Source of the DNA: an uncultured Gammaproteobacteria bacterium
GTDB lineage: Bacteria; Patescibacteriota; Microgenomatia; UBA12405
DNA length: 64,000 nucleotides
Assembly: GCA_964628885.1 (NCBI GenBank)
Contig: CAZVMP010000001.1
Location: 43,459 to 107,458 of the forward strand
Direction: 5' to 3'
This document shows, in pieces, positions 3,787 through 51,909 of this stretch. The stretch's first letter is position 1, and the number at the start of each line of letters is the position of its first letter. A program made the translations under genes and the position numbers. Below the pieces are notes generated by a model, which was given only the letters and a program-made list of their open reading frames with translations, ran no database searches and had not been told where the DNA came from.

Positions 3787-4524
3787 ATGAAAAATAAAAT
3801 AACTAAAAAACAAAAAGAAATAATAGTCCTGCTATATCGGTTTAGATTCTTAAATAGATATCAAATACAACAAATTCTAAATCATAAAAAACCACATCGA
3901 ATTAACCAGTGGTTAAAAAGCTTAGTTGATAAAAAAATAATTGGCAAAAATTATTCTAAAAAAATTGGTGACAATACTAAACCAGCAATCTATTACTTAG
4001 CAGTAAAAAGTAAAAGTTATTTAGCTGATCAACTTAAAGAAGATGATAAGTTAATAAAACGGATTTATGGTGAATCAAAAAGAAGTTTAAGGTTTATTAA
4101 TCATTGTTTAATCTCTGCCAATTTTTATCTAGAACTTAAAAAAACACATTTGTCAAAAGATATATTTTTCTATACTAAAGTTGATTTGTTAAGCCATGAC
4201 TATTTACCAGATAACCTGCCAGATGCTTATGTGGCTATCAAAGAAGGTAAAGATATCAAACGTTACTTTTTTGAAATAATTGATCAAGATACTCCTAGGT
4301 TTGCGATAAGAGCTAAGATTAAACAATACCTAGATTATTATGATAATAATACTTGGCAGGAAGTAACTAAACATCCTTTTCCAAGAATTCTTATCCTTTG
4401 TCCCAATAAGGTCATTAAAAAATATTTATCTAATTTTATCCCCAGAATTGCAGCCGAGGAGAATCAACCAGATGTTAATTTTTATCTCTCGGCTAAATTA
4501 TCAAAATGGTGGAGTGCTGTTTAA
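3787..4524 (+). CDS. Replication-relaxation (Replic_Relax, PF13814-like) family protein
   Basis: N-terminal winged-helix pattern 'QKEIIVLLYRFRFLNRYQIQQIL' is typical of replication-relaxation proteins of plasmids and ICEs. It lies directly downstream of the coupling ATPase. Confidence 0.55.
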   Translation: MKNKITKKQKEIIVLLYRFRFLNRYQIQQILNHKKPHRINQWLKSLVDKKIIGKNYSKKIGDNTKPAIYYLAVKSKSYLADQLKEDDKLIKRIYGESKRSLRFINHCLISANFYLELKKTHLSKDIFFYTKVDLLSHDYLPDNLPDAYVAIKEGKDIKRYFFEIIDQDTPRFAIRAKIKQYLDYYDNNTWQEVTKHPFPRILILCPNKVIKKYLSNFIPRIAAEENQPDVNFYLSAKLSKWWSAV

Positions 4525-31250: not shown

Positions 31251-31949
31251 ATGAATAAACTCAAAATTATCTTCATTGCCTCTTTAATTATTCTTTCTTC
31301 GATAATTTTTGTCAGTTGTCGTAAAAAAAAGACCGAAACTACTATAGAAATTAAAGATGAAACTCCAAAAGAATTAATTTTAACCGACGATGATAAACCT
31401 ATAATTTCATTAATTCCTAGAGAAGATGGTCATGAATTAAAATTAAAAGTCGACAAAATTCCCTCCATAATTAATCAGGTTGAATATGAACTTATTTATT
31501 CAGCCAAAGATAATGGTTTAGAAATGGAAAAGGGAATTGGTGATACTGTCAAGCTAACTTCAAACAGTTTTGAAAAAGATTTACTCTTAGGAACCGCCAG
31601 TTGTACTAACGGATGTAAATATAAATTTGATGAAGGAGTTGTTGGGGGTGTTCTATCGCTTACTTTTTATACTACTGACAATCAAACCGCTCTTTTTGAA
31701 GCTCCCTTTACTCTGTCAAACTCTGCTGATATTAAAAAAGCTGGGGGACTCTCTTTAGACTTAGAAGATTTTTCCATCAACGCCGTTACTACTACTAAAA
31801 ATGATTTCTTTATTCTTATTAAGAATTATCGCCCTTACTACTCTGTTTTTTCCAATGGTAATGGAGCTGCTAAAATAACCAAAATATTACCAGAAACTGT
31901 TACTAAAGAAAATACTACTAGTCTTATTGGAGATTATTTAATAAACTAA
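31251..31949 (+). CDS. Putative lipoprotein, function unknown
   Basis: Signal peptide with lipobox-like 'IIFVSC'; no family recognised. Confidence 0.45.
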   Translation: MNKLKIIFIASLIILSSIIFVSCRKKKTETTIEIKDETPKELILTDDDKPIISLIPREDGHELKLKVDKIPSIINQVEYELIYSAKDNGLEMEKGIGDTVKLTSNSFEKDLLLGTASCTNGCKYKFDEGVVGGVLSLTFYTTDNQTALFEAPFTLSNSADIKKAGGLSLDLEDFSINAVTTTKNDFFILIKNYRPYYSVFSNGNGAAKITKILPETVTKENTTSLIGDYLIN

Positions 31950-32824
31950 TGAATTTTCACCGTCCGGTTTTACTTCAAGAAGCCGTCGACGCTATTTCTG
32001 TTAAACCAAAAGGTATTTATATTGATGCCACCTTAGGGCATGGAGGTCATACTCTAGAAATTATTAAGCAGGGAGGCATTGTTTATGGTTTTGACCTTGA
32101 CCCTGCCAATCTACAAATCGCCAGTAATCGAATTAAGGCTGAAAACCTATCTCAAAATTTTTTCCCTGTAAATCAAAATTTTAATCAAATAAACACCGTT
32201 GTTAAACAAAAAATTAAATCAAAAATAGATGGTTTAATTGCTGATCTTGGCTTAAGTCAAAATCAACAAACCGGTTCCAATCGAGGATTCTCCTTTAATG
32301 ATTCTCAATCTCTGGACATGCGCCTTAACCCTACCACTCAACTATTAACAGCAGAAGAAATTATTAACACCTATTCTTTTGACCAGTTATTTGAAATTTT
32401 TTCTAAATTTGGTCAAGAAATCTACAGTAAACCAATTATCTTAAAAATCATTAAAGAAAGACAAAAATCTTCTATTAAGACTGGTACTAAATTAGCCAAT
32501 ATTATTAGGGATTATTACCAAAAATACCATATTAAATCTAAAATTGACCCCGCTACTAAAATATTTCTTAGTCTCCGTATAGCTGTCAATCAGGAATCTC
32601 AAAATCTAATTCAATTGCTAAATCAAACTCTTGATATTGTTAAACCTGGTGGTCAAGTTGCCATTATTACTTTTCATTCTGGTGAAGACCGGTTGGTTAA
32701 ACAATTTATTAACAAACATTCCAAATCGATTGTAAAACAAAAACCTATAAAACCGTCTTTATTAGAGATAAAAACTAATCCTTTATCTCGCTCAAGCATC
32801 CTTAGATCATATAAAATAATTTAA
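31949..32824 (+). CDS. rsmH: 16S rRNA (cytosine1402-N4)-methyltransferase
   Basis: 'HRPVLLQEAVDAI....GIYIDATLGHGGHTLEI' is canonical MraW/RsmH; it is the first gene of the dcw cluster. Confidence 0.9.
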   Translation: MNFHRPVLLQEAVDAISVKPKGIYIDATLGHGGHTLEIIKQGGIVYGFDLDPANLQIASNRIKAENLSQNFFPVNQNFNQINTVVKQKIKSKIDGLIADLGLSQNQQTGSNRGFSFNDSQSLDMRLNPTTQLLTAEEIINTYSFDQLFEIFSKFGQEIYSKPIILKIIKERQKSSIKTGTKLANIIRDYYQKYHIKSKIDPATKIFLSLRIAVNQESQNLIQLLNQTLDIVKPGGQVAIITFHSGEDRLVKQFINKHSKSIVKQKPIKPSLLEIKTNPLSRSSILRSYKII

Positions 32825-33078
32825 TGTCTAAAATATTTTCTAGCATCATTATTATCAGTCTCATTATTCAAATTATTTTCTCTTTTTTCTATTCCAGTAA
32901 TATTGTTACTCAAAATAATCAACTTGATATTTATCAAAAAGAAGCTGATCTACTACAATTAGAAGTAGAATCCGCCTGGAAACAAATTGCTGACCTAACT
33001 TCAATTAAATCTCTTACCCAAAGCACCCCTTCAGCTAACCTCCAACCAATTACTAAATCTATAAAAATTGACTTTTAA
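32824..33078 (+). CDS. ftsL: FtsL-like small bitopic cell division protein
   Basis: 84 aa, one TM helix then a coiled-coil-like segment; sits between rsmH and ftsI. Confidence 0.55.
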   Translation: MSKIFSSIIIISLIIQIIFSFFYSSNIVTQNNQLDIYQKEADLLQLEVESAWKQIADLTSIKSLTQSTPSANLQPITKSIKIDF

Positions 33079-34727
33079 TGATTCAACGTTACCGTATTTT
33101 ATTATTTTCATTTATTGCTTGTTTCCTGGCCGTTATTACCAGGCTTTTTTATTGGCAGGTGATTAAAGGCCCAGAATTAAAAGAAAAAGCTCTCAGTCAA
33201 ACTTACAAACTAGAAACTAAAAATCCTACCCGAGGACAAATTTTTTCTTCAGATGGTTTCCCGCTTGCTCTCAACCAAACAGCTTATCGTCTTTCACTTT
33301 ATAAACCCAATATGACTGAAAACATCGAAGATATTATTAATCAGATCGACTCTATCAATCTAGGATTTATTGATAATAATCCAAACCTTAATAATTTTAA
33401 ATTAAACCCTGATCAAAAATGGATTGATTTACCTACAAATTTTTCTGAATCAGAAAAAAATCAGCTTAACAAAACAGACGGATTAATTTTTAAAAAATAT
33501 AATTTAAGATATTATCCAGAAAATGATTTAGCCTCAAATATGTTAGGATTTGTAGCCAATGATGACTATGGCTACCAGATTGGGTATGGCGGATTAGAAT
33601 CATATTACAACAAACAATTAACCGGTAAAACCGGATTTACTTGGTCTCCACAAGACGCTACTGGTAAAACTATTCTTACTAAAAAGAGTTGGAGTTCTTC
33701 TACTGTTGATGGTCGCCATCTTCTTACTTCTATCAACCGAAACATTCAATATTACGCTGAAAAAGAATTGGCTTCCGGAATTGATAAATACCAAGCAGAT
33801 TCCGGTTCTATTATTATTATGGAAAGTAAAACCGGCCAAATAGTTGCTATGACCAGTCAAACTGGTAAAAATATTGCCACTCCTAGTGCTTCAAGAAATC
33901 CAGCCATAGCAGACCTATTTGAACCCGGATCAATCTTTAAACCTATAGTCGTAACTATGGCCCTCGATCAAAAATCAATCACCCCAGATTATATTTGTCA
34001 CAATTGCTCCCAACCGCTCACCATTGGCCAATATACTATTAATAATTGGGATAAATCAACTCATCCTGAATCAACCCTCAAAGAAGTTATTAAAAATTCT
34101 GATAATATTGGCATGAGTGATATTATTAGCCACCTAGGTTTAGAAAACTTTCTCAAATATTATCAAAGTTTAGGCCTTAATCAAAAAACTGGTATTGACC
34201 TTCAAGGAGAATCTAAACCAACAGTAAAAACTAATTGGCCAGAAATTGACTTAGCCACAGCTTCATTTGGGCAGGGGATTGTTGTTACTCAAATCAACAT
34301 GCTTCAAGCTTTTAATACTATTGCCAATGATGGCATATTAATCGGCCCAAGAGTTGTTACCTCATTTTCCGATAACCTTAATCAAACTTATCCCGCTAAA
34401 TCTCCCAAAAGTTATCGTGTTTTTCAAACTGATTCAGTCTCTGAAATGAAGTCAATTTTAAAATATGCTGTTGAAAATGGAGCTGTTTCTATTTTCAAAC
34501 CAAAAAATCTTGAAGTTTGTGCCAAAAGTGGTACTGCTCAAGTTGCTGTCAAAGGCGGCTACACCGACTCAGCCACTATCGGCTCATATATTGGATTCTG
34601 GCCCTGTGATCAAGCAAAGTTTACTATGATTGTCACTATTAATAATCCTAAATCAGCCCAATGGGGATCAAACACCGCCGCTCCTATCTGGTTTGAAATG
34701 GCTTCAAAAATTAATGGTTTGCTATAA
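33078..34727 (+). CDS. ftsI: Penicillin-binding protein (class B transpeptidase, FtsI/PBP2-like)
   Basis: N-terminal TM; transpeptidase motifs 'GSIFKP' (SxxK), 'KNSDNIG' (SxN) and 'AKSGTAQ' (KSG). Confidence 0.85.
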   Translation: MIQRYRILLFSFIACFLAVITRLFYWQVIKGPELKEKALSQTYKLETKNPTRGQIFSSDGFPLALNQTAYRLSLYKPNMTENIEDIINQIDSINLGFIDNNPNLNNFKLNPDQKWIDLPTNFSESEKNQLNKTDGLIFKKYNLRYYPENDLASNMLGFVANDDYGYQIGYGGLESYYNKQLTGKTGFTWSPQDATGKTILTKKSWSSSTVDGRHLLTSINRNIQYYAEKELASGIDKYQADSGSIIIMESKTGQIVAMTSQTGKNIATPSASRNPAIADLFEPGSIFKPIVVTMALDQKSITPDYICHNCSQPLTIGQYTINNWDKSTHPESTLKEVIKNSDNIGMSDIISHLGLENFLKYYQSLGLNQKTGIDLQGESKPTVKTNWPEIDLATASFGQGIVVTQINMLQAFNTIANDGILIGPRVVTSFSDNLNQTYPAKSPKSYRVFQTDSVSEMKSILKYAVENGAVSIFKPKNLEVCAKSGTAQVAVKGGYTDSATIGSYIGFWPCDQAKFTMIVTINNPKSAQWGSNTAAPIWFEMASKINGLL

Positions 34728-34741
34728 TTAACTCATTCAAA

Positions 34742-36040
34742 ATGTGGCAAAAAATTAAAAATAAGTTCTTTCATTTACCCAAAAGCATCTTTTATAGTCA
34801 TTACTATCATCAACCCTCTAAAAAACTAACTTTAATTGGAGTTACTGGTACCGACGGTAAAACAACCACCTCGATTCTCTTGTATGAAATCCTTAAAGCA
34901 TCAGGAATAAACACTGGAGTTATTACTACTATCGGAGCTAAATATGGTAATGAAGAAATTGACACTGGTCTTCACATGACCAGTCCAGACCCTTCAATTA
35001 TTCATAAAATATTTAAAAAAATGGTTGATGCCGGGATTACTCACGTAGTTTGTGAAATTACAGCCCATGCCTTAGACCAATTCCGCTACTATGGTTGTAA
35101 TTTCGAAGTTTCTGTTATTACTAATACCTCCCATGAACATTTAGATTATTTCTGCAACATGAAGAATTACATTGAAACCAAAAGTTTAATTTTTTCTCAA
35201 TCAAAAATTTCTATCTTGAACCGAGATGACGCTTCCTACCAAATTATTAAAAACAGTCTTAAAGAAAAGTCTTATCTTACTTATAGTGTTAAACATAAAT
35301 CAAATTACCAAGCCAAACACATAACCCTAACTCCTAAGTCTTTAACTTTTAGTGTTAATAAATTGGATTTTAAAACTGATAGTCCTTATTATTACCAAAT
35401 CTATAACATTCTGGCTGCTATTGCTGTAACTGATCAACTAAAAATTGACCTTAAAAATATCATAAAAATTGTTAAAAAATTTCCCAGTACTAAAGGTCGT
35501 CGCGAAGAAGTTGTTAACCAATTAGATATATTAACTCTAATTGACTTTGCTCATACTCCAAATGCTATTAAAAATACTCTCTCGTCTCTTCAACAAATAC
35601 GCCAAGGCCGAATTTTAACTATATTCGGTGCCACTGGCGGTAGAGATCAAACTAAGCGCCCAATTATGGGCTCTATTGTCTCCAAATTAGCTAATATTGC
35701 CTTCATCACCGCCGACGACACTAGAAACGAAGATATTAATCAAATTAATAAACAAATAATTAGTGGTATCTCCAAAAATTCAATTTTAATAGACTATCAA
35801 CAACCAATCAATGAAATTAAAAAAATAATCAAAAATAATCAAGATAATTTTATTTACTTTAATATTCCTAATCGTCAAGACGCTTTTAATTTAGCCATTA
35901 GCCTAGCTCAATCCAAAGACACTATTATTGCTATGGGTAAGGGTCACGAAACTACTATTCTTGAAGGAAACACTGAATATCCTTGGTCAGAAGCTGATGC
36001 TTTTAGAACCGCTTTTAAATTACGACAATCAAATGCCTAA
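34742..36040 (+). CDS. murE: UDP-N-acetylmuramoyl-tripeptide (Mur) ligase, MurE-type
   Basis: 'LTLIGVTGTDGKTTTSILLYEIL' P-loop and a Mur-ligase central/C-terminal profile; follows ftsI. Confidence 0.85.
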   Translation: MWQKIKNKFFHLPKSIFYSHYYHQPSKKLTLIGVTGTDGKTTTSILLYEILKASGINTGVITTIGAKYGNEEIDTGLHMTSPDPSIIHKIFKKMVDAGITHVVCEITAHALDQFRYYGCNFEVSVITNTSHEHLDYFCNMKNYIETKSLIFSQSKISILNRDDASYQIIKNSLKEKSYLTYSVKHKSNYQAKHITLTPKSLTFSVNKLDFKTDSPYYYQIYNILAAIAVTDQLKIDLKNIIKIVKKFPSTKGRREEVVNQLDILTLIDFAHTPNAIKNTLSSLQQIRQGRILTIFGATGGRDQTKRPIMGSIVSKLANIAFITADDTRNEDINQINKQIISGISKNSILIDYQQPINEIKKIIKNNQDNFIYFNIPNRQDAFNLAISLAQSKDTIIAMGKGHETTILEGNTEYPWSEADAFRTAFKLRQSNA

Positions 36041-36641
36041 ATATAATCTCCAAAATCAATTACCTCCTCAAAATAATTACGCCCAAGGATGGCTTCCTCA
36101 AAGAAATCAAGCTGATTTTTGGTATTTTGATACCAGTTGTCGTTCAAATCTAAGCAGTTTTCAACTAAGCTCTGAAAATCGTCGAATTCTTAATAAAACT
36201 CAAAGTTTTAATTTTCAAAAAATATCTCTTAAACAATTTCAATTCACCTCTGATGTTAAAAAACAAATTTTAAATTGGATTAAACAACTTAATTGGAATT
36301 TTCCTATAAGTTCAGTTAAAAATATTTTTACTAATCATATTTTCAACTATCTATATATCTGGAAAAACCAAGAAAATGAAACCGTTGCCTACTCAATTTG
36401 TTATTTTTCCAACAATCTTAGCCACATAGCCTATGTTTTTTATAATCCAGAATATAGTCATGGAAATCTTCCTATTCGTTTAGTATTACAAACTATTATT
36501 GATAGTCATGATTTAGGCCTGAATTATTGTTATTTGGGTCGATTTTCTAAATCACAAAGTTATTACAAAAGAAATATGCCAGGTTTTGAATATTTTCATA
36601 ATCATCAATGGTTAAAATATGACAAATCAAGCCCAATCTAA
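36032..36641 (+). CDS. Aminoacyl-tRNA--protein transferase-like protein (ATE_C / Bpt-like domain)
   Basis: 'CRSNLSSFQLSSENRRILNK' and 'LSHIAYVFYNPEYSHGNLPIRLVLQTIIDSHDLGLNYCYLGRFSKSQSYYKRNMPGFEY' match the ATE_C consensus (…SAVYTFFDP…SLGTY…LGL.Y.YLGYWI…KM.YK..F.P.E). Start taken at Met 'MPKYNL', which overlaps the murE stop by 8 nt; the ORF track starts it at 35928. Confidence 0.6.
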
Positions 36642-38016
36642 TACCCATATTCACATTTTAGGAATAGCCGGTACTATGACCGCACACTTGGCCGTTGCCT
36701 TAAAGCAAACAGGAATTAAAGTTACTGGTTCTGACCAACCTAAAATTTTTCCCCCTATCAGCACCACCCTTAAAAAAGCTGGAATTAAAATTAACATTAC
36801 CGACATTGACCATCATATAGATCAAGCCATCATTGGTTCATCATATAATTCATTTGAAAATACTAAAGAAGAATTTAAGCTCATAAAATCCCAGAAAATC
36901 CCTTATTTGTCAGCCACTAAATATATTGCTCAAAATATTGTTAAATCAAATTCGATTATTGTTGCTGGAAGTTTTGGTAAAACTTCTATTACTAGTCTTT
37001 TAGCTTGGATTTTTACTAAAACCAAACTAGCCCCTAGTTATATGTTTGGTGGCACTCCTAAAAATAAATTTCCTCCTATTAAAATTTCTAATTCAGATTG
37101 GTCAATTGTTGAAGGAGATGAATCTATTCATGGCCTAGATCGAACTGCCAAATTCCTTTATTATCAAACTAAATATCTTCTCATTACTAGTGCTGATTGG
37201 GAACATAAAGACTCTTACCCAGATTCAGCTTCAAATTTTAATGCTTTCAAAAAATTGGTTAAAAAATTACCTCCCGATGGGATTCTTTTAATTAACCATC
37301 AAAACCCATTGGCTTTTAAATTAAGCCAATATTCCCCGGCTAAAGTAATTACTTACAATACTCCTCATTCAGATTATTTCTTAGAAAAAATAATTCCTCA
37401 AGAAAATTTTACTCGCCTAATCATTCATACCCCATCAGGATTAATTAAAGTTGATACTACCTTAATTGGTCAATTTAATTTTGAAAATATTCTTGCCGCT
37501 GTCGCCATGAGTGACTGTCTTAATATTAGTCCTAAAATAATTTCTAAATCTATTTTTTCATATCGTGGTGTCAAGCGCCGTTTAGAGTTAGTAGCTAAAA
37601 CTAAAAATATCTTATTTTTTGATGATTTTGCTCAATCCAGCAATCGAATTAAATCAACTCTCCAGGCTCTACACTCACACTATCCTCAAAAAAAAATTCA
37701 GGTTCTCTATCAACCTCATGCTTCCTTTAATCAATATAAAAGTAGCTTGACTCAACTCAAGGACTCTTTTAATTTAGCTGACAAAATAGTCTTACTTAAA
37801 CTTAAATTTAATCATAATATCGATAAAAAAAATCGAAGTACTGCTAAAGATTTTCGTGACTATCTCGGATCAAAAATAAATTATCTCCCTCTCAAGAGAC
37901 AAGTTATACAGTATTATAAAAACAGTTTGACATCAAATGATATTTTAGTTTATATGAGCTCTGGAGGACTTGAGGGTAGTCAAATTTTTAAATCAATTAT
38001 TAATTTATTCAAATAA
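36619..38016 (+). CDS. Mur ligase of the MurC/Mpl type (UDP-N-acetylmuramate--L-alanine ligase or murein-peptide ligase)
   Basis: N-terminal 'HIHILGIAGTMTAHLAVALKQTGIKVTGSDQPKIFPPISTTL' (MurC/Mpl Rossmann-like N domain), P-loop 'VAGSFGKTSITSLL'. It occupies the position where murF is usually found. Confidence 0.75.
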   Translation: MTNQAQSNTHIHILGIAGTMTAHLAVALKQTGIKVTGSDQPKIFPPISTTLKKAGIKINITDIDHHIDQAIIGSSYNSFENTKEEFKLIKSQKIPYLSATKYIAQNIVKSNSIIVAGSFGKTSITSLLAWIFTKTKLAPSYMFGGTPKNKFPPIKISNSDWSIVEGDESIHGLDRTAKFLYYQTKYLLITSADWEHKDSYPDSASNFNAFKKLVKKLPPDGILLINHQNPLAFKLSQYSPAKVITYNTPHSDYFLEKIIPQENFTRLIIHTPSGLIKVDTTLIGQFNFENILAAVAMSDCLNISPKIISKSIFSYRGVKRRLELVAKTKNILFFDDFAQSSNRIKSTLQALHSHYPQKKIQVLYQPHASFNQYKSSLTQLKDSFNLADKIVLLKLKFNHNIDKKNRSTAKDFRDYLGSKINYLPLKRQVIQYYKNSLTSNDILVYMSSGGLEGSQIFKSIINLFK

Positions 38017-38020
38017 CATA

Positions 38021-39349
38021 ATGTCTAGATACATAGTCACTGGCGGAAAAGAATTAACTGGCGAAGTCTCTATCCGCGGAGCCAAAAATGCCAGCTATAA
38101 ACAAATAATTGCTTCTATTTTAAGTCCTCAAACTACTCAGCTAACTAATATTCCTAAGATATCTGACATTAAAATAACTGAAAGTATTGCCAAAAGCCTC
38201 GGAGCAACTATTAATTACTGTGGTGAACACTGTTTGGAAATTACCACCCCAAAAATTACCAGCTCAATTGTACCTGCTGGTACCGGTGAAAAATCAAGAA
38301 CCTCATTTATGTTTTCCGCTCCATTATTAGTCAGAAGCGGCCAAGCAATAGTTCCTACTCCTGGTGGTGATAAACTTGGCGCCAGACCACTAGATCGTCT
38401 ATTTGATTGTTTTAATAAAATGGGAATCACTACCGAAGTTACTGACACCCAAATAAAGTTTAATACCGACAAGATTAAAGCCGTCCATTACACTTTTAAT
38501 AAACCCTCCCACACTGTTACCGAAACACTTATTATGACTGCCGCCCTAGCCGATGGAGAAACTATTCTTGACAATTCAGCACAAGAACCAGAAATTGATG
38601 ATCTTATCTTAATGCTTAATGATATGGGTGCTAATATCCACCGCAATACAAGTGACCCTAAAAGAATAATTATTAACGGCGTTCGTCAACTTAAAGGTAC
38701 CAATCACCAAATTATTGCCGACAGAAATGAAATTGTTACTTTTGCCTGCGCCGCTCTAGCCACTAAAGGATCGATTAACATCCTTCGCAGTAGCCCAGAA
38801 ATTGTCCAGACTTTTTTAAATACTATTGAGACCATGGGAGCAAAAATTATCCCTGGTAGAGACGAAATTACAGTTTCATGGGTTAAGCCTCTAAAAAATA
38901 TTGATATTGTTACCGGACCAGAACCTGAATTCATGACTGACTGGCAAGCTATTTTTTCCATCCTATTAACTCAAACTGTCGGTTGCAGCACCATTATCGA
39001 AAGAGTTTATCCTTATCGTTTTCAACATATTGATAATCTTAAAAAAATGGGAGTTAAAGCATCTTTCTTTAATCCAAAAATTGATAATCCTAAAACTTAT
39101 TATCAATTTAATCCCGAAAGTGATAAGCCAGAATACTTCCATGGTGTCAAAATTTATGGCCCTAATAAATTAAAACCAGCCAATTTTGTTATCAATGACC
39201 TTCGAGCAGGAGCCTCAACTACCCTAGCTGCTCTTACCGCCCAAGGAACCTCAATTATTGATGGAGTTGAGTATATCGAAAGAGGATATGAGAAATTAGC
39301 TGAAAGACTTTGCTCTCTAGGTGCTAACATAAAGTATATAAAAACATAA
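38021..39349 (+). CDS. murA: UDP-N-acetylglucosamine 1-carboxyvinyltransferase
   Basis: 'YIVTGGKELTGEVSIRGAKNAS...IPKISDIKIT' is canonical MurA/EPSP-like. Start taken at Met 'MSRYIV' rather than 37970. Confidence 0.9.
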   Translation: MSRYIVTGGKELTGEVSIRGAKNASYKQIIASILSPQTTQLTNIPKISDIKITESIAKSLGATINYCGEHCLEITTPKITSSIVPAGTGEKSRTSFMFSAPLLVRSGQAIVPTPGGDKLGARPLDRLFDCFNKMGITTEVTDTQIKFNTDKIKAVHYTFNKPSHTVTETLIMTAALADGETILDNSAQEPEIDDLILMLNDMGANIHRNTSDPKRIIINGVRQLKGTNHQIIADRNEIVTFACAALATKGSINILRSSPEIVQTFLNTIETMGAKIIPGRDEITVSWVKPLKNIDIVTGPEPEFMTDWQAIFSILLTQTVGCSTIIERVYPYRFQHIDNLKKMGVKASFFNPKIDNPKTYYQFNPESDKPEYFHGVKIYGPNKLKPANFVINDLRAGASTTLAALTAQGTSIIDGVEYIERGYEKLAERLCSLGANIKYIKT

Positions 39350-39352
39350 TTT

Positions 39353-40387
39353 ATGATTCATCTATATCTTGGGTTACTACTATTTTCTTTCTTAATCACT
39401 AGTATTTTAGTTATTCCCTTCATAAACATTCTTTATAAACTAAAATTCCAACGTCGAAAACAACAGACTACTGATTTTTTAAACAAAAAAACCCCTATCT
39501 TTGATAAATTTCACAATAATAAAACCGGCACTCCAGTTGGCGGCGGAGTTTTAATAATTATTACCGTCACCGCTCTCTTTTTTATTCTTTTCCCTGTCGT
39601 TAAATTTTCTAAAATATTTATTTCCTCTAACTATAAAATTGCCAGCGAAATATCAATCTTGTTTTTTACTTTTATTAGTTTCGGACTTCTTGGATTATAT
39701 GATGATATTTATAAGTTCTTTGGCTTTAAACAAACCGGTTTCTTTGGACTTAGAATGAAGCATAAATTCATGCTTCAGACATTTCTTTCTCTAATTGTTT
39801 CCATGGCAATATACTTTCAATTAAAAATTGATTTCATCTATATCCCTGTCTTAGGAATCCTTAGATTAGGCTGGTTTTTTATTCCTATATCAACTATTAT
39901 AATTACTGGTTTTGCCAATTTTTTTAATATAACTGACGGTCTTGATGGGTTATCTTGTGGACTATTAATGATTGCTTTATTTGCTTTTTGGATCCTCTCT
40001 AACACCTCTCTGGACACCCCTATCTCTATTTTTTTGTCACTTTGGATTGGTTCTTTAATTGCCTTCTTATATTTTAATGTTTACCCTGCCAGAATTTGGT
40101 TAGGGGATGTTGGCGCCCTCTCCTTTGGAGCCACATTTGCCGTCATTGCTCTTATGTTAGGTAAAATAGTTCCCTTAATCATTGTTGGGTCTCCATTTAT
40201 TATTGAGGGAGTAAGCAGTGCTATTCAAATAATTAGTAAAAAATATTTCAAAAAGAAAATCTTTCCTGCGGCCCCAATTCATCTAACGCTACAAAGCCTT
40301 GGTTGGGAAGAACCTAAAATTGTTACTCGTGCTTGGTTAGCTGGAATTATTTTAGCAATCTTTGGATTATGGTTGGGACTAAACTAA
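39353..40387 (+). CDS. mraY: Phospho-N-acetylmuramoyl-pentapeptide transferase
   Basis: About 10 TM helices and 'NKTGTPVGGG', 'NITDGLDGL' MraY motifs. Confidence 0.85.
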   Translation: MIHLYLGLLLFSFLITSILVIPFINILYKLKFQRRKQQTTDFLNKKTPIFDKFHNNKTGTPVGGGVLIIITVTALFFILFPVVKFSKIFISSNYKIASEISILFFTFISFGLLGLYDDIYKFFGFKQTGFFGLRMKHKFMLQTFLSLIVSMAIYFQLKIDFIYIPVLGILRLGWFFIPISTIIITGFANFFNITDGLDGLSCGLLMIALFAFWILSNTSLDTPISIFLSLWIGSLIAFLYFNVYPARIWLGDVGALSFGATFAVIALMLGKIVPLIIVGSPFIIEGVSSAIQIISKKYFKKKIFPAAPIHLTLQSLGWEEPKIVTRAWLAGIILAIFGLWLGLN

Positions 40388-40431: not shown

Positions 40432-40938
40432 ATGACTAATATTATTCATGATGGCAAGATTGTTAAAGAAAGAGTTCTTGGGGGCAAGGGACACTGGAAA
40501 GATATTCAAAAAGAAACCAGAAAAATTGCTGCTTCTCAAAAAATAGATCTAACCAAATTAACTCCTAAAAAACTTTATAATTTTCAAAAAAAACATAAAA
40601 TCGGAATAGACTGTTCTGGACTAGCTACTCAATTACTTATATATTATGGCAATCTTTTAGGGAAAAAAGTTAATCTAATTCCTAGAAAAACTTCAGCTCA
40701 CATGTTAACTTCTCCACCACTAGCAATTAAAATTACTGATAATGATTTAATTCAAACGGGAGATTTGGTTAGACAGAAAAATGGTCATCACCTTCTCTTT
40801 ATAATTGAAAAAGTTGGTAAAACCATTAGTTATGTTGATAGTTCTTTTTGGGGTAGGGGAGTAAAATACGGTCAATTTGACATCACTGATGCTGCTTTTG
40901 ATAACCAAGGAATCTACCGTCTACTTTTCCTCAATTAA
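40432..40938 (+). CDS. NlpC/P60 family peptidase (putative peptidoglycan endopeptidase/amidase)
   Basis: Catalytic Cys motif 'GIDCSGLATQL' and a downstream His ('NGHHLLFII'). Start taken at Met 'MTNIIHDGK'; the ORF track starts at 40333 inside mraY. Confidence 0.6.
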   Translation: MTNIIHDGKIVKERVLGGKGHWKDIQKETRKIAASQKIDLTKLTPKKLYNFQKKHKIGIDCSGLATQLLIYYGNLLGKKVNLIPRKTSAHMLTSPPLAIKITDNDLIQTGDLVRQKNGHHLLFIIEKVGKTISYVDSSFWGRGVKYGQFDITDAAFDNQGIYRLLFLN

Positions 40939-41085
40939 TTCTTTATACTGCAACGGTTCAAGTGACAAAACTTCCACTTCAGTTCCACATTCATCACATT
41001 CCAAAATATCTCCTATCATCATTCCTTCAGATTGTTTAATCTCAGTCTCACAATCAGGACAAATAATTTTAGTTGTTTGTGTCAT
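40921..41085 (-). CDS. LysW-like zinc-ribbon small protein (amino-group carrier protein fold), 54 aa
   Basis: 'CPDCETEIKQSEGMMIGDILECDECGTEVEVLSLEPLQY' aligns along its whole length with LysW 'CPECGAELRLENPELGELVVCEDCGAELEVVGLDPLRL'. The C-terminus is '...LIEEK', not the canonical EDWGE tail. Start taken at the internal Met 'MTQTTK' (the track gives 41121). Confidence 0.5.
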   Translation of the reverse strand: MTQTTKIICPDCETEIKQSEGMMIGDILECDECGTEVEVLSLEPLQYKELIEEK

Positions 41086-41124
41086 AAGTATAAAAAATAT
41101 ATAATAAAGCTTAAGCAACATTAT

Positions 41125-41946
41125 ATGGCAAATACTCCCTTAGTTAAACTAGATAATATCTATTATAAACGTGAAGATAAAAATCCCACCGGTTCCGCTA
41201 AAGATAGAGCTATTCCTATTCAAATTAAAAATCTAAAGAAACAAGGTTACCTGTCTGCAGTTATTTCTAGTACTGGTAATGCCGCCATTTCTGCTGCCCA
41301 TTTTTGTCAACAAAATAAAATTGACTTAACTGTTTTTTTGTCACCCAAAATCAATCATAACAAATTTAACATTCTTAAAAAATATCCATTAGAAATTATT
41401 ATTTCTCCAAAACCAATCAGTGATGCTATTAAATTTGCTAAAACCAATCACGCTTATCTTCTTCGACAGTCAACTGATCCAGCTGCCTTAATTGGATATC
41501 AACAAATTGCCACTGAATTAACCACTCAATTACCTCAAACCACCAGTATTTTTATTCCCATTGGTAGCGGCACCACTCTCCTTGGAATTTCTCAAAAAAT
41601 CTCTAACTCTGTCAAAATCTTTGGATGCCAATCTGTTGCCAATTCGCCTATTAGCCAAACTTTTGACTCTGATTTTGTTCCTGAAACCAGGTTAATTACC
41701 GACGCCCTTTCCGCTAGATTTCTCCCCAACAAAAAAAATATAATTACCGCCATCAATAACTCTAAAGGTTTTTCTTTTTCTATTCAAAATCAAGCCATAA
41801 TCTCTGCTGATAACCATCTTCATCGTCTTGGTATCAACACCTCACTAGAAGGGGCTTTATCTTTTGCTGCCTACCAAAAAGCTATTAAAAATAATTTTTC
41901 TGTTGGTAATTTTCCTGTCATTATTTTAACCGGAGCTAAAAGATAA
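41125..41946 (+). CDS. PLP-dependent enzyme, fold type II, threonine synthase-like (short)
   Basis: 'TPLVKL....YKREDKNPTGSAKDRA' (PLP lysine motif of the ThrC/CysK family), 'STGNAAISAAH', C-terminal 'FPVIILTG'. Start at Met 'MANTPLV'. Confidence 0.7.
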   Translation: MANTPLVKLDNIYYKREDKNPTGSAKDRAIPIQIKNLKKQGYLSAVISSTGNAAISAAHFCQQNKIDLTVFLSPKINHNKFNILKKYPLEIIISPKPISDAIKFAKTNHAYLLRQSTDPAALIGYQQIATELTTQLPQTTSIFIPIGSGTTLLGISQKISNSVKIFGCQSVANSPISQTFDSDFVPETRLITDALSARFLPNKKNIITAINNSKGFSFSIQNQAIISADNHLHRLGINTSLEGALSFAAYQKAIKNNFSVGNFPVIILTGAKR

Positions 41947-41948
41947 CT

Positions 41949-43124
41949 ATGGATTTATTTAAAATAATTAACCAATCAAATTATATTTTTTATTTCTTAG
42001 TTGTTGACAACTTTCTAGATATTCAACTACCTCAACTAAAAAATTTTCATCTCATTTATGCTTTTAAAAGTCCAATCTTTGATGCTCTCAAAAAAAACCA
42101 CTTACCTTATTTTTGTCTTGAAGAAGAAAATGTTGCTCTTTCTCAAAAAAATACTGGCCGTCTTTTATCTTCACCCCAAGTTATTGAATACATCAATTCT
42201 ACTTCTGCTAATAAAATCCCGGTTATAATTCCTTTTAAACCATCAGCTAAAGTAGAAATACTTTGTCGTAAACACAACTGGGTATTTGCTGCTGTTTCAC
42301 CCCAAATTAATCGATTCCTCGAAGATAAAAACCAATTTTTTAACTTTTGTCAAACTAATCATCTTCCAACAATTACTGGTTCTGTTGATAAATTTAATCA
42401 ATCAAATTTTGAAAAATACCAGCATCAATTTGGCCAAAAACTAGTTATTCAAACTCATTTTGGCTGGGCTGGTAACAGTACTTATTTTGCCCAAAACTGG
42501 CATGACCTCTCTAATAAAATTCCTCTCCAAACCATAGTAAAATTTTCTCCTCTTTTAGAAGGTTATTCTCTTCTAAATAATTGCTGTCTCACTTCATCAG
42601 GACTTATTCAAAGCCCTCCCGCCCTTCAATACACCGGTCTTAAAAACCTGACTAAAAACCCTTTTACTACTGTTGGCCGTCAATGGCCATCCATGGCTCC
42701 CGACCATATTAATCAGCAAGTTATTAAAATAACCAAAAAATTTAGCCAATTAATAAATGATCTCGGTTACCGTGGTTTTTTTGGCCTGGATTTCTTTGTT
42801 AGCCAAGACTCAGTCTATCTACTAGAATGTAATCCCAGATTAACAGCCTCCTTTGCTTTTTACACCGATATAGAAATTCAGCAATCTCTTAATCCTTTAT
42901 TCCTTTTTCACCTAGCCGAATTTATTAACATTAAAACTAATCTTAATACTAATTCTCATCAACAATTAATTAATTGTGCCAAAATTATTGGTTCTGAAGT
43001 AACTCTAAAAAATAAGCACAGCCAAACTATTAAAAAATATCACGACTTTACTGCTTTTAGTCAATCAGTTAATCCTGTTGTTATTCCTCGTCGCATCATC
43101 AACCTGCTCCATGAAACAGACTAA
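41949..43124 (+). CDS. ATP-grasp family ligase (Ddl-like or RimK/LysX-like; subfamily unresolved)
   Basis: 'QKLVIQTHFGWAGNSTYF' (ATP-binding strand) and 'GFFGLDFFVSQDSVYLLECNPRLTAS' (the E.N.R ATP-grasp C-terminal motif). Confidence 0.6.
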   Translation: MDLFKIINQSNYIFYFLVVDNFLDIQLPQLKNFHLIYAFKSPIFDALKKNHLPYFCLEEENVALSQKNTGRLLSSPQVIEYINSTSANKIPVIIPFKPSAKVEILCRKHNWVFAAVSPQINRFLEDKNQFFNFCQTNHLPTITGSVDKFNQSNFEKYQHQFGQKLVIQTHFGWAGNSTYFAQNWHDLSNKIPLQTIVKFSPLLEGYSLLNNCCLTSSGLIQSPPALQYTGLKNLTKNPFTTVGRQWPSMAPDHINQQVIKITKKFSQLINDLGYRGFFGLDFFVSQDSVYLLECNPRLTASFAFYTDIEIQQSLNPLFLFHLAEFINIKTNLNTNSHQQLINCAKIIGSEVTLKNKHSQTIKKYHDFTAFSQSVNPVVIPRRIINLLHETD

Positions 43125-44289
43125 ATCTCCGTTACTTCCACTAATATTTTCCCTTATCAGTATCGGAATTATTTTTATTTCTATTTCTTCTCTTACTGAA
43201 GCTAATACCACCACCGGTGATAAATTTTATTTTCTTAGAAAACAGTTTTTTTGGTTATTTATAAGTTTTACCGCTTTTTATATCACCTCAAAAATTAATC
43301 TAAAACTAATTAAAAAACTTTCACCAATCATTTATTTTACCTCTATCGTCGGGTTAATTTTAGTTTTAATTCCTGGGCTCAGCAACCAAACTCTTGGGGC
43401 CAGACGTTGGCTCAATCTTGGCCCACTTAGTTTCCAACCTTCAGAACTTCTTAAATTAACTTCTGTTATTTATTTTTCTTACTTATTTGCTCAACAATCA
43501 AAGCGCAGTTTAATTCATCTTATTATTCACCTTTCAATTCCCTTCATCCTTATAATCTTAGAACCTAACTTAAGCACCGCTATTCTTGTTTCTGCCATCA
43601 TTATTACTATTTTTTATCTAGCCGGAGGCAAGGTTATTCCTTTACTTTTCTTATGTTTAGCCTTAATTGGACTCTCATTTATTTTAGTCATTAATTCTCC
43701 TTACCGCGCCGCCCGATTTCAAACATTTCTTAACCCAGAACAAGATGTTCAAACCATCTCTTATCATAACAGTCAGATTATTCTGTCTCTTTCTTCTGGC
43801 GGCTTATTTGGTAAAGGTTTTGCTAACTCAGATCAAAAATACCGATTTTTACCTAAAATATCAACCGACTCTATCTTAGCCATCATTAGTGAAGAAACCG
43901 GATTCTTGGGCACACTTATCGTTATAATGCTCTATATTCTTTTATTGTCTTATCTAATTAAAACCGCATCGATAATCTCTGATGTTTTTCCTTCATTATT
44001 ACTTTCTGGAGTTGCCTGCTGGATCGGTTATCAATGTCTTATTAATATCTCCGCCATTGCCAATATTATTCCACTCACTGGAGTCCCTCTACCTTTTATT
44101 TCCTATGGAGGATCATCATTATTAACTCTAATGATTGCCATCGGATTAGTACGTAATGTCGAAAAAACCCATTCATTATTGATATACTCTGATAATGATC
44201 AAAGAGAGAAAAAAGATTATTATCACCGGCACTCATCTTACCCCCGCCATCGAACTAATTCGTCAACTCGAGTCAGACCCAAAAAATAA
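43111..44289 (+). CDS. ftsW: SEDS family peptidoglycan glycosyltransferase, FtsW
   Basis: About 10 TM helices and 'RRWLNLGPLSFQPSELLKL' (SEDS signature); located upstream of murG. Start taken at Met 'MKQTKS'. The C-terminal tail overlaps murG by 95 nt. Confidence 0.8.
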   Translation: MKQTKSPLLPLIFSLISIGIIFISISSLTEANTTTGDKFYFLRKQFFWLFISFTAFYITSKINLKLIKKLSPIIYFTSIVGLILVLIPGLSNQTLGARRWLNLGPLSFQPSELLKLTSVIYFSYLFAQQSKRSLIHLIIHLSIPFILIILEPNLSTAILVSAIIITIFYLAGGKVIPLLFLCLALIGLSFILVINSPYRAARFQTFLNPEQDVQTISYHNSQIILSLSSGGLFGKGFANSDQKYRFLPKISTDSILAIISEETGFLGTLIVIMLYILLLSYLIKTASIISDVFPSLLLSGVACWIGYQCLINISAIANIIPLTGVPLPFISYGGSSLLTLMIAIGLVRNVEKTHSLLIYSDNDQREKKDYYHRHSSYPRHRTNSSTRVRPKK

Positions 44290-48093: not shown

Positions 48094-50901
48094 ATGTCTC
48101 ATTTCAAAACCATTCCTCAAAATATAAAACCAACTGATCTTGAAGAAGACACTATAAAATTCTGGAAAGATCAAAAAATTTTTGAAAAATCATTAGAATC
48201 ACGACCTGAAAACGATAGTTATTGTTTTTATGACGGCCCTCCATTTATCACTGGATCTCCACATCACGGGAGCTTACTCCCTGGTATTGCCAAAGATGTT
48301 ATTCCTAGATATTGGACCATGAAAGGAAAACGAGTTAGACGTGTCTGGGGATGGGATTGTCACGGCCTTCCAGCTGAAAATAAAGTTGAAGAACTTCTTG
48401 GTCTTAAAAGTAAAAAAGATATTGAGGCTATTGGTATTAAAAAATATATCGACGCTTGCTATTCTTATGTCCAAAATGTCTCTCAAGAATGGCCCTGGTA
48501 TATTGATAGAACTGGTAGGTGGGTTGATTTTGATAACGCTTATAAAACTATGGATTTAGATTATATGGAAAGCGTTATGTGGGCTTTTTCTAAAATATAC
48601 AATAAGGGTTTAATTTATAAAAGCCATCGAGTATCCCTCTTTTGTCCCAGATGTTCCACTCCCTTATCTAATTTTGAAATTGCCATGGACAATTCATATA
48701 AAATGGTGGACGACCCGGCCATCTTCATAAAATTTAAAATCAAGAACCAAGACAAATATATTGTTGCTTGGACTACCACCCCATGGACTCTCCCAGCTAA
48801 TTTAGCTCTAGCGATTAATCAAAATGAAACTTATGTTGAAGTTGTAGTTGATAATCAAACTCTTATTTTTGCTAAATCCAGGATTGAAGCTGTTTTAAAT
48901 AAAAATAATTATAAAATTATCAAAGAATTCCCTGGAAAAGAGCTCGTCGGATTAAAATTTGAACCTTTATATCATTTCTATAAGACTACTGAAAAAGACT
49001 ATCATATCTTTCATGGCGACCTGGTTTCTATGGCTGATGGTACTGGAGTCGTTCACATTGCTCCTGGATTTGGTGAAGATGATGCCACTTTAGGAAAAGA
49101 ATTTAATTTATCAGTCATTAATCACGTCGATGATGAAGGTAAAATTGATCCCATAGTAACTCCCTTTGCTAATCTATTTGTCAAAAAAGCCGATCCTTTA
49201 ATTATCAATGACTTAAAATCCCGAAACCTATTACTAAAAGAAGAAAAAATTAACCATAGTTACCCTTTCTGTTACCGTTGTGGCACTCCTTTAATCTATA
49301 AAACCCAAAATGCCTGGTATCTTGATGTCCAAAAAATAAAAAAACAAATGATTGATACCAATCAAAAAATTAATTGGGTTCCTGACCATATTAAAGATGG
49401 CCGCTTTGGACAGGGGATAGAAACCGCTCCTGACTGGTGTTTATCTCGTTCCCGATATTGGGCCTCTCCCATCCCCATTTGGGAATGTGATTGTGGTCAA
49501 AGATATGTTCCTTCAAGCATTGCCGACCTAGAAGCAGCCTCCGGTCAAAAAGTTACCAATCTTCATAAGCCAGAAATTGATGAAATTACTATCAAATGTC
49601 ACAAATGTCACCAAACCGTTCACCGTGTTCCTGAAGTTTTAGATTGTTGGTTTGAATCCGGATCTATGCCTTATGCTCAATTTCACTATCCTTTTAAAAA
49701 CAAAAATGTTTTTGAAAAAAGTTTTCCAGCTGATTATATTATCGAATATATAGGTCAAACTCGAGGATGGTTTTATACTTTACATGTTTTATCAAATGCC
49801 CTATTTACCTCTGAGTCCTTTAAGAATTGTATTGTCACCGGCGTTATTATGGGCACTGACGGTCGTAAAATGAGTAAACTTCTCAAAAATTACCCTGATC
49901 CTAAAGCCGTAATCCAGAAATATGGCGGAGATGCTTATCGTCTCTATCTCATGAGTAGCGTTGTTATGACTGGAGAAAATATTAACATTGATGAAAGAGA
50001 ATTTGAAAATCAAGTCAAAAACATTCTTTTACCACTATTCAACTCATTCAAATATTTTCTTACTTATGCCAATCTTCACAACTGGTCTCCCAACACAAAA
50101 CCAGTTAATTCACCCCACCCGCTTGATTCTTGGATTATAAACCAAGCTAATAATTTAACTAATAACATTGCCAAATCATTAGAAGAGTACAACTTAGTCA
50201 ATGCTACTAGACTAATTGAGCCTTTTATAAACGATCTCTCGCGATGGTATATTCGTCAATCACGAGATAGATTTGTTAATGGTGATCAACAGGCCCTCCA
50301 AACTATTTGGCAAGTTTTAGTTCAATTTAGCCTCTCAACCGCTCCTATAATTCCCTTTATTACCGAATATTTCTGGCAAAAATTAGTCGTTTCTGTAGAT
50401 AAAAGTAAACCTGAATCAATTCATCTCGAATTTTATCCAGAAGCAAAGTCTTTTGACCCTAAATTAGCCAACGATATGTCCTTAGTTCAACAAATTTGTG
50501 AACAAGGCAATATGATTCGAAAAACTAATCAAATCAGCACTAGACAGCCATTATCCCTACTTACAATTCATTCTAATCAAAAATTTAATTTAGACAAAGA
50601 TTTAGTTGATATCATCAAAAATGAAATTAACGTTAAAAATATTGTCTTTACCAACTCAAACCAAAACTTACTTATAACTTTAGATACTAATATTACTCCC
50701 AAACTAAAAGCAGAAGGAGAAGCTCGTGACCTTATTAGACAAGTTCAAAACTTACGTAAAGAGCTTAATCTAAACTTAAAAGATAAAATAAAAATATACT
50801 CACCTGATTGGCCAACCGATTTTGAAGCTGAAATTAAATTAAAAACCTTAGCTCAATCTATTGATAAAGCCAATCAATTAAAAATCGAAAAAATCAGCTA
50901 A
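48094..50901 (+). CDS. ileS: Isoleucine--tRNA ligase
   Basis: 'FYDGPPFITGSPHHGS' (HIGH-type), 'GWDCHGLP', 'KMSKLLKNYPDP' (KMSKS), 935 aa. Confidence 0.9.
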   Translation: MSHFKTIPQNIKPTDLEEDTIKFWKDQKIFEKSLESRPENDSYCFYDGPPFITGSPHHGSLLPGIAKDVIPRYWTMKGKRVRRVWGWDCHGLPAENKVEELLGLKSKKDIEAIGIKKYIDACYSYVQNVSQEWPWYIDRTGRWVDFDNAYKTMDLDYMESVMWAFSKIYNKGLIYKSHRVSLFCPRCSTPLSNFEIAMDNSYKMVDDPAIFIKFKIKNQDKYIVAWTTTPWTLPANLALAINQNETYVEVVVDNQTLIFAKSRIEAVLNKNNYKIIKEFPGKELVGLKFEPLYHFYKTTEKDYHIFHGDLVSMADGTGVVHIAPGFGEDDATLGKEFNLSVINHVDDEGKIDPIVTPFANLFVKKADPLIINDLKSRNLLLKEEKINHSYPFCYRCGTPLIYKTQNAWYLDVQKIKKQMIDTNQKINWVPDHIKDGRFGQGIETAPDWCLSRSRYWASPIPIWECDCGQRYVPSSIADLEAASGQKVTNLHKPEIDEITIKCHKCHQTVHRVPEVLDCWFESGSMPYAQFHYPFKNKNVFEKSFPADYIIEYIGQTRGWFYTLHVLSNALFTSESFKNCIVTGVIMGTDGRKMSKLLKNYPDPKAVIQKYGGDAYRLYLMSSVVMTGENINIDEREFENQVKNILLPLFNSFKYFLTYANLHNWSPNTKPVNSPHPLDSWIINQANNLTNNIAKSLEEYNLVNATRLIEPFINDLSRWYIRQSRDRFVNGDQQALQTIWQVLVQFSLSTAPIIPFITEYFWQKLVVSVDKSKPESIHLEFYPEAKSFDPKLANDMSLVQQICEQGNMIRKTNQISTRQPLSLLTIHSNQKFNLDKDLVDIIKNEINVKNIVFTNSNQNLLITLDTNITPKLKAEGEARDLIRQVQNLRKELNLNLKDKIKIYSPDWPTDFEAEIKLKTLAQSIDKANQLKIEKIS

Positions 50902-50910
50902 AATTGATTA

Positions 50911-51909
50911 ATGTCTAAGTCTCCTTGGCTACCAGTCCTCATCAGCCTTACTTTTTTGTTTGCCATTAATATTTTAATGGTTACCTCAATCTCTCCTGGA
51001 TATCTTAAAAAACAATTTACTGCTTGGGTTGTTGGATTAATCCTTTTTTTTATCGGTCGTCAAATAAACCCTAAACAAATCTCTTCTTCCAAACGACTAA
51101 TTTTTCTTGTTAGTTGTTTTTTACTCTTGCTCCCTATTATCTTAAATTCCATTACCAGAGGGTCTCGTCGCTGGATTAATCTTGGTTTTACCTCCATCCA
51201 ACCATCAGAAATTACCAAACCATGGTTGTTATTATTTTTAACCAACACCCAATTCCCCTTACTCCATCTTATTCCAGTTGCCATTATCACTCTTCAACCC
51301 GACCTCGGTAGTGCCATTTCCGTCATGTTTCTCATGGCTCCAATTATTATTTACGACCAAAAATTACTTAAAATATTCATTATTTTAACTTCAGTATTCC
51401 TTCTTATATCTCCTCTTATTTACAATTTTGTTCTTCATGATTATCAAAAAGAAAGAATCATTACCTTCCTTAATCCCTCATCAGACCCTCTAGATAAAGG
51501 TTATAATGTCATTCAATCTAAAATTGCTATTGGTTCTGGTGGTCTTTTTGGTAAGGGATACAAAAAAGGAACACAAGGACAACTTTTATTCCTTCCTGAA
51601 AAACACACTGATTTTATGTTTGCCGCCACTGCCGAAGAACTTGGAATTATTGGAGTTACTATTATTTTAACTGCTTATTACTTCCTTATAAAAACTCTCA
51701 TTGATAAAGCATTTTTAGTCCGTAATAACCGTATTTTATTTTTATTTACTCTTGGAATCACTCTTCAAATCTGGATGCAGGCCTTTGTTAATATCGGAAT
51801 GAATGTTGGTATTTTACCAGTCACAGGCATTCCTCTCCCTTTCCTTTCTGTCGGCGGATCATCTATCATAACCCTGTTATTTTCCATTGGAATTATCTAT
51901 TCTTCATAA
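50911..51909 (+). CDS. rodA: SEDS family protein, RodA/FtsW paralog
   Basis: 'RRWINLGFTSIQPSEITKP', 'LQPDLGSA', about 9 TM helices; second SEDS gene in the window. Confidence 0.75.
   Translation: MSKSPWLPVLISLTFLFAINILMVTSISPGYLKKQFTAWVVGLILFFIGRQINPKQISSSKRLIFLVSCFLLLLPIILNSITRGSRRWINLGFTSIQPSEITKPWLLLFLTNTQFPLLHLIPVAIITLQPDLGSAISVMFLMAPIIIYDQKLLKIFIILTSVFLLISPLIYNFVLHDYQKERIITFLNPSSDPLDKGYNVIQSKIAIGSGGLFGKGYKKGTQGQLLFLPEKHTDFMFAATAEELGIIGVTIILTAYYFLIKTLIDKAFLVRNNRILFLFTLGITLQIWMQAFVNIGMNVGILPVTGIPLPFLSVGGSSIITLLFSIGIIYSS

Follow-up and report, generated by a model that had tools for sequence, protein, structure and literature searches.

A minimal ATE/Bpt-like gene conserved beside Mur ligases, and fused to one, suggests an undescribed tRNA-dependent peptidoglycan step in Patescibacteria

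The gene and its cluster

The DNA analyzed here, 64,000 nucleotides of contig CAZVMP010000001.1 (assembly GCA_964628885.1, forward-strand positions 43,459 to 107,458), referred to below as the window, carries a low-GC (33%) Patescibacteria division and cell wall (dcw) cluster. Between murE and a further Mur ligase gene of this cluster lies a gene, here called X, that encodes a minimal protein resembling the aminoacyl-tRNA transferases of the ATE/Bpt family. X occupies positions 36033 to 36641 of the forward strand, from an ATG at 36033 to a TAA at 36639 to 36641, and its product has 202 amino acids; an earlier note, made from the sequence alone, had begun the gene one base too early, at 36032, and counted 203 residues. 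An in-frame TTG at 35928, within murE, was rejected as an alternative start because the homologues of X begin at the ATG, reading M-x-Q/K-F/Y-N. The placement described in that note was correct: the start of X overlaps the murE stop by 8 nucleotides (ATGCCTAA, forward strand, 36033 to 36040, read directly from the sequence), and open reading frame (ORF) coordinates give a 23-nucleotide overlap of its 3' end with the start of the next ligase gene (forward strand, 36619 to 36641). The three genes thus overlap with zero intergenic room.

The surrounding order is rsmH, ftsL, and ftsI (31949 to 34727), murE (34742 to 36040), X, the murC-like ligase gene (36619 to 38016), and then murA and mraY (38021 to 40387), all on the forward strand; murA and mraY follow the murC-like gene directly in the same gene string, and the order of the upstream dcw genes is identical in 80 of 80 related genomes. 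An accessory set comes next (40432 to 43124, assigned by Pfam), comprising orf168 (NlpC/P60-like), a LysW-like zinc ribbon on the reverse strand (40921 to 41085), a PALP enzyme, and an ATP-grasp_3 protein, after which the cluster continues with ftsW, murG, a 125-amino-acid ORF, ftsA, and ftsZ. A promoter scan found promoter-like sites at chance level, and terminator-like sites numbered 11 against 5.6 expected, every one of them within coding sequence. The window contains neither a third Mur ligase gene nor a paralogue of X; murD, murF, murB, and ddl are absent from it, which is uninformative about the genome as a whole.

The murE product upstream of X is assigned by TIGR01085 (330 bits; cutoff, 257), with the alignment beginning at model position 73, and it matches only Mur_ligase_M and Mur_ligase_C in Pfam; it therefore lacks the N-terminal uridine diphosphate (UDP)-binding domain. 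Its P-loop begins at residue 33, compared with about residue 110 in Escherichia coli MurE, and its DNPR motif reads DDTR. The aligned MurE proteins linked to X (L004 to L106) share this N-terminal truncation, with the P-loop, where found, beginning at residues 33 to 53 and with DD(T/P)R or EDPR in place of DNPR, the Arg being invariant. The downstream ligase is a three-domain enzyme of the MurC/Mpl family that scores 234 bits against the murC model (TIGR01082) and 185 bits against the mpl model, both under cutoff; among solved structures, those closest to it are of MurC (9ir5; E, 8e-37) and Mpl (3hn7 and 3eag).

Family, fold and conserved residues

X contains the 'YLG...YK...F' block of the ATE_C consensus (CYLGRFSKSQSYYKRNMPGF). 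Its Pfam ATE_C match over residues 97 to 175 is marginal (23.4 bits; cutoff, 25; E, 9.5e-5), and its best score against the NCBIfam arginyltransferase equivalogs, 30.1 bits, does not reach their membership thresholds of 170 to 267. Profile searches gave no match to ATE_N, FemAB, or Leu_Phe_trans at an E of <=1 and none to DUF2156, while Acetyltransf_6 and Acetyltransf_7 matched weakly; a membrane domain is also absent. When 1.84 billion representatives were searched exhaustively with a profile, a small family of 225 clusters emerged, the more remote of whose members score 27 to 37 bits against ATE_C and so exceed its cutoff; a canonical Bpt with a Cys-rich N terminus, P0269, came up as a weak match (E, 5e-7). 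Alignment of the 84-member family alignment to this Bpt by hhalign gave 98.5% probability (E, 3e-15; 163 columns). The next-best matches after ATE1 and Bpt were the MprF synthase domain and FemX, which are also aminoacyl-tRNA transferases. Automatic annotation labels the relatives of X 'arginyltransferase' or 'hypothetical'.

Sequence searches of the PDB found nothing relevant with a Shapirobacteria-only profile and, with the wider family profile, ATE1 at an E of only 0.04 to 0.3; comparison of folds was needed. An AlphaFold2 model of X built from 23 sequences (predicted local distance difference test, 87.6; predicted template modeling score, 0.86) was matched by Foldseek first to human ATE1 (E, 5e-9; TM, 0.71). 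The top structural matches are all aminoacyl-tRNA-dependent transferases, and acetyltransferases rank lower. The similarity of X to ATE and Bpt is real and beyond chance. The ATE_C consensus claimed in the earlier note thus stands on the motif block, the hhalign result, and the fold, with the Pfam score falling short of its threshold, and the comparison of ATE and FemAB profiles that the note had called for favors the ATE_C side. X is very probably an active aminoacyl-tRNA transferase of the ATE/Bpt lineage.

Conservation was counted over 84 family representatives, and positions were mapped to klAte1 and to FemX through alignments, with the residue roles given in PMC9351520. All 84 have K179, and 83 have Y178; by alignment, these residues map onto klAte1 K304/Y303 and FemX K305/F304, pairs that are essential in both enzymes and whose lysine stabilizes the reaction intermediate (PMC9351520). 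R37 (84/84) and R51 (83/84) are equally constant, and the basic helix S47-E48-N49-R50-R51 is almost invariant and corresponds to the SxSQ(K/R)R stretch of ATE and Bpt.

Other features of ATE1 and Bpt are missing. The Cys4 Zn/[Fe-S] site is absent, as neither CxxC nor CC motifs were found and C36, the sole Cys of the region where ATE_N would lie, is unconserved; the canonical Bpt P0269, unlike X, has the Cys-rich metal-site motifs. In klAte1, R80, the first Arg of GFRRSG, reads the acidic N-terminal residue of the acceptor (PMC9351520). By a weak motif alignment (GWLPQR for GFRRSG), this position is L21 in X, and across the family it is Leu in 65, Val in 15, and Lys in 1 of 84 representatives (Leu or Val in 80, hydrophobic in 82). 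In klAte1, the side chain of the donor Arg is held by the acidic residue E277 (PMC9351520), whose counterpart is T154 in X and an uncharged residue (A/T/V/S/M) across the family. The donor-pocket positions I132/L150/T154/C166 are uncharged, which argues against Arg as the donor, and are similar in character but not identical to those of Bpt (A/A/Q/L). Lacking the Cys4 site, the acidic-reading Arg, and the Arg-donor pocket, X is therefore not a canonical ATE1 or Bpt; of the Bpt-like enzyme proposed earlier, the family fold remains, and 'Bpt-like' denotes ancestry, not activity. X appears to retain the machinery of aminoacyl transfer without the donor specificity and, as far as the mapping of the acceptor site allows us to infer, without the acceptor specificity of ATE1 and Bpt.

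Gene context across lineages

The Shapirobacteria-type set comprises 80 loci, one genome per species, labeled Shapirobacteria, Woesebacteria, or Patescibacteria, with proteins 50 to 73% identical to X. The order rsmH-(ftsL)-ftsI-murE-X-murC-like occurs in all 80, usually followed by murA-mraY-orf168. Median identity across these genomes is 62% for X, 58% for FtsI, 57% for MurE, and 49% for the MurC-like ligase; X is thus under purifying selection and is conserved at least as well as its essential neighbors. Among the metagenome-assembled genome records with this Patescibacteria-type dcw cluster (CAZ* and CAY*; L006 to L083), many bear the title 'uncultured Gammaproteobacteria bacterium' and one bears 'Candidatus Methanoperedens'; these bins look mislabeled.

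A second subfamily (P0128-like; L087 and L092 to L105; GC, 29 to 41%), about 33% identical to X, has murE-X in 16 of 16 loci, with a murC-like gene after X wherever the downstream sequence suffices, L106 excepted. One of its arrangements is murE-X-murC-murB-murA-(two-domain Mur ligase)-mraY, and a second two-domain Mur ligase of 403 amino acids is encoded at positions 9455 to 10666 of L095. In a third lineage (P0144; L173 and L174), the order is ATP-grasp, NlpC/P60-like, mraY, X, murC-like, NUDIX, LysW-like, and PALP, so that X adjoins the MurC-like ligase and not murE. In P0122, a protein of 645 amino acids, X is joined to a MurC-like ligase through a Pro/Ser-rich linker; the sequence is identical in three independent assemblies, and seven proteins of 630 to 654 amino acids, from ENA, JGI, and NCBI, make up its 90% cluster. 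The MurC-like ligase adjoins X in about 100 loci and is both its most conserved neighbor and its fusion partner. The linkage to murE that the earlier note had proposed to examine therefore holds as mur linkage in each of the 80 genomes, in another two low-GC lineages, and in a fusion, with the downstream MurC/Mpl-like ligase rather than MurE as the tightest partner.

Of the loci of the high-GC subfamily (L107 to L172; about 267 amino acids; GC, 53 to 62%), 42 have enough upstream sequence to be informative, and in 37 of these the gene immediately upstream, in the same orientation, encodes alanine racemase. The racemase is assigned by TIGR00492 (372 bits), example two-gene units being L120 3770 to 5804 and L172 8794 to 10804, and no other conserved neighbor was found in this subfamily. 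A gene for LpxD, an enzyme of lipopolysaccharide (LPS) synthesis, lies near the X relative in one locus, L172, and points to an LPS-making bacterium. One protein of 424 amino acids, P0291, combines Ala_racemase_C with a high-GC X domain and may be a fusion; another, P0184 (809 amino acids), has an X-family domain fused to PPDK_N and PEP-utilizers domains, like phosphoenolpyruvate synthase or rifampin phosphotransferase. The contigs of P0157 (2 kb) and P0176 (1.6 kb) are too short for context.

ClpS, ClpA, ClpP, and aat were not seen among the window ORFs scanned or among the called genes near relatives, and no related locus has X beside clpS or clpA among its called genes, the neighborhood that would have spoken against the earlier proposal.

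The accessory set of orf168, LysW-like, PALP, and ATP-grasp_3 genes lies between mraY and ftsW in the window and recurs around X and the murC-like gene in L173 (3564 to 11151) and L174. The orf168 product carries a DCSG motif, and the PALP enzyme, of the fold-type-II pyridoxal phosphate class, has threonine and cysteine synthases and SbnA as its closest relatives; no solved sequence relative was found for the ATP-grasp_3 neighbor. The four genes may form a module that supplies or recycles amino acids of the precursor.

Elsewhere in the window, a reverse-strand gene (11880 to 12830) encodes a 316-amino-acid protein consisting of the LPG_synthase_TM (MprF flippase-type) region only, with no synthase domain. 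It lies at one end of a large glycosyltransferase/Wzy cluster (about 12.8 to 27.3 kb) and deserves mention because X resembles the MprF synthase domain. Positions 840 to 4524 encode a 935-amino-acid ATPase like the TrwB/TraG-type coupling proteins and then a Replic_Relax protein, a pair that could be a conjugation or mobile-element remnant or a component of a Patescibacteria type IV system. There are two FtsW/RodA-family paralogues, one within the dcw cluster (43078 to 44289) and one (50911 to 51909) after ileS (48094 to 50901).

Proposed reaction, rivals and meaning

We consider it probable, at roughly 60%, that X has been recruited into cytoplasmic peptidoglycan-precursor metabolism. Aminoacyl-tRNA transferases couple an activated donor carboxyl to an acceptor amine, and C-terminal elongation of the stem peptide belongs to the ATP-dependent Mur ligases, which cannot use aminoacyl-tRNA. 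The sole free amine of the nucleotide or lipid precursors is on the side chain of the diamino acid at residue 3. Since only this amine is free, addition of a Fem-like branch is the simplest reading of the role of X. We infer from residues, context, and chemistry that X uses aminoacyl-tRNA, that its acceptor is a peptidoglycan precursor, as gene context and chemistry suggest, and what kind of amino acid it donates. The aminoacylated 3' end of the tRNA would be bound by the basic helix SSENRRILxK together with R37, and K179, with Y178 adjacent, would stabilize the tetrahedral intermediate as klAte1 K304 and FemX K305 do. The residue then moved to a free amine of the muropeptide precursor would be an uncharged L-amino acid, probably a small or hydrophobic one, the predicted acceptor being the side-chain amine of the diamino acid introduced by MurE. 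X would work in a complex with the MurC/Mpl-like ligase, physically associated with the Mur ligases. That X performs this specific branch addition is a tentative proposal, to which we give somewhat below an even chance. As MurC and alanine racemase, two independent neighbors of X, both use L-Ala, the context weakly suggests alanine as the donor.

Several points weigh against this main reading. The product of MurC offers no free amine, so that the fusion of X to MurC is no sign of a sequential reaction. The DD(T/P)R motif of MurE retains the Arg characteristic of diaminopimelate-type enzymes, and diaminopimelate-type walls are usually unbranched. The His that binds a tRNA phosphate (klAte1 H178, FemX H206) is apparently unconserved in X, in a region where the alignment is of low confidence, and the mapping of acceptor-site residues likewise depends on a weak motif alignment. 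Because dcw gene order is generally conserved, the 80 Shapirobacteria-type loci partly reflect phylogenetic inertia, and it is the independent lineages and the fusion that carry weight. Distant subfamilies, moreover, have no cell wall neighbors (P0203 lies beside a DUF2279 gene, P0232 beside a methyltransferase gene).

X might instead act as an N-degron-type transferase that adds a destabilizing residue to protein N termini, like Bpt and Aat, with its dcw location incidental or a division or Mur protein as its target. Its closest relatives in both sequence and structure are ATE1 and Bpt, its relatives are annotated automatically as arginyltransferases, and the distant subfamilies just mentioned would fit. 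We nevertheless find this unlikely, given that the position of the Arg that reads acidic N termini (klAte1 R80) is hydrophobic in 82 of 84 representatives, 80 of which have Leu or Val there, that the Cys4 site is absent, that ClpS, ClpA, and aat were not seen among the scanned window ORFs or the called genes near relatives, and that the gene is linked or fused to genes for MurC-like ligase, MurE, or alanine racemase in four separate lineages. Loss of the same Arg also weighs against a salvage or repair role, in which X would take L-Ala from Ala-tRNA and attach it to the free alpha-amine of a gamma-D-Glu-diamino-acid fragment, a mimic of an N-terminal Glu, and the Mpl-like ligase would join the resulting tripeptide to UDP-MurNAc; the cell could scavenge this fragment from a host, or the NlpC/P60-like neighbor could release it. 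The family's ancestral acceptor is an N-terminal Glu or Asp (PMC9351520), the ligase has an Mpl score little below its MurC score and is fused to X, MurE lacks its UDP-binding domain, L-Ala is common to MurC, alanine racemase, and Ala-tRNA, and NlpC/P60-like, ATP-grasp, and other amino-acid-handling genes accompany the X-ligase pair. Against these stand a MurC score that exceeds the Mpl score in every case, the retention of murA, murE, and mraY, which implies de novo synthesis, and a wholly speculative chemistry, and we hold salvage to be quite unlikely. A broader scheme, in which X, the MurC/Mpl-like ligase, the MurE without domain 1, and the accessory genes together make up a noncanonical route, with the stem peptide partly built, repaired, or branched off the nucleotide and including a tRNA-dependent step, seems to us very unlikely.

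The consistent absence of domain 1 from the MurE beside X, the translational coupling of X to both ligases, and its fusion to one of them would also suit a noncatalytic or regulatory subunit of a Mur ligase complex, for example one replacing the missing MurE domain or sensing aminoacyl-tRNA levels; Mur chimeras can serve stability and not channeling (PMC10214165). Yet even subfamilies with no more than 20 to 30% identity to X keep the Lys/Tyr pair and the basic helix unchanged, which argues for retained catalysis, and the high-GC relatives adjoin alanine racemase and not Mur ligases, so that a noncatalytic or regulatory role appears highly improbable. The GNAT fold, the weak Acetyltransf_6 and Acetyltransf_7 matches, and the LPG_synthase_TM-only protein encoded at 11880 to 12830 bring in, lastly, an acyl-CoA-dependent GNAT acetyltransferase or a lipid aminoacylase like the aminoacyl-phosphatidylglycerol synthases (aaPGS). 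The acetyl-CoA-dependent identity was rejected, as acetyltransferases rank below all of the aminoacyl-tRNA transferases that head the structural matches and the family motifs are those of ATE and Bpt. With neither a membrane domain nor a DUF2156 match in X, and with the LPG_synthase_TM-only protein 23 kb distant in a glycosyltransferase cluster, we give this pair of activities the slightest of chances.

With recruitment into precursor metabolism as the preferred reading, X can be set beside known systems. It shares with ATE1 and Bpt (Pfam ATE_N plus ATE_C; COG2935) a homologous, GNAT-like ATE_C catalytic domain and the Lys/Tyr pair of the YK motif, but it is shorter (about 200 amino acids, versus about 250 in Bpt and about 500 in ATE1), has GF/WLP in its family for their GFRRSG, and is encoded within mur genes and not in an N-degron context. 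With Weissella FemX and the FemXAB and MurM enzymes, it has in common the superfold and the catalytic Lys/aromatic pair, and the reaction proposed for X, between aminoacyl-tRNA and the residue-3 side-chain amine, is that of FemX; its gene sits among those for peptidoglycan precursors. Those enzymes have two tandem GNAT domains, with or without a coiled coil, whereas X has a single domain and a putative acceptor. The lack of a Leu_Phe_trans match separates X from the L/F-transferase Aat. The aaPGS enzymes, including MprF (DUF2156), esterify a lipid hydroxyl; X has neither their membrane/flippase domain nor a DUF2156 match and lies in a mur context. The P0122 fusion fits the pattern of natural Mur chimeras (MurE-MurF, MurC-Ddl, MurC-MurB, and MurG-MurC) in joining a candidate peptidoglycan enzyme to a MurC-like ligase. 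The known MurC chimeras are all with enzymes of the peptidoglycan pathway, and an ATE-like partner is not among the catalogued types (PMC10214165).

In the literature, we found no paper tying ATE/Bpt-like proteins to mur genes or to Patescibacteria walls and none describing X or the X-MurC fusion. All known tRNA-dependent peptidoglycan transferases belong, to our knowledge, to the Fem family, and we know of no chemical characterization of the walls of the ultrasmall Patescibacteria. A wall enzyme of the ATE/Bpt family would thus mean that aminoacyl-tRNA had been recruited independently into wall synthesis, and it would turn around the old inference by which ATE1 resembles peptidoglycan synthases. 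X also represents a minimal scaffold for ATE-type catalysis, about 200 amino acids without a metal domain, and as it is small and soluble, the hypothesis is amenable to direct in vitro work. Should the noncanonical route exist, it would make precursors in a manner that model bacteria are not known to use. The conservation of X beside Mur ligases and its fusion to one suggest a tRNA-dependent step of peptidoglycan synthesis so far undescribed in Patescibacteria; if this is true, unusual stem peptides, branched or salvaged, would occur in these bacteria and in the high-GC lineage that carries LpxD.

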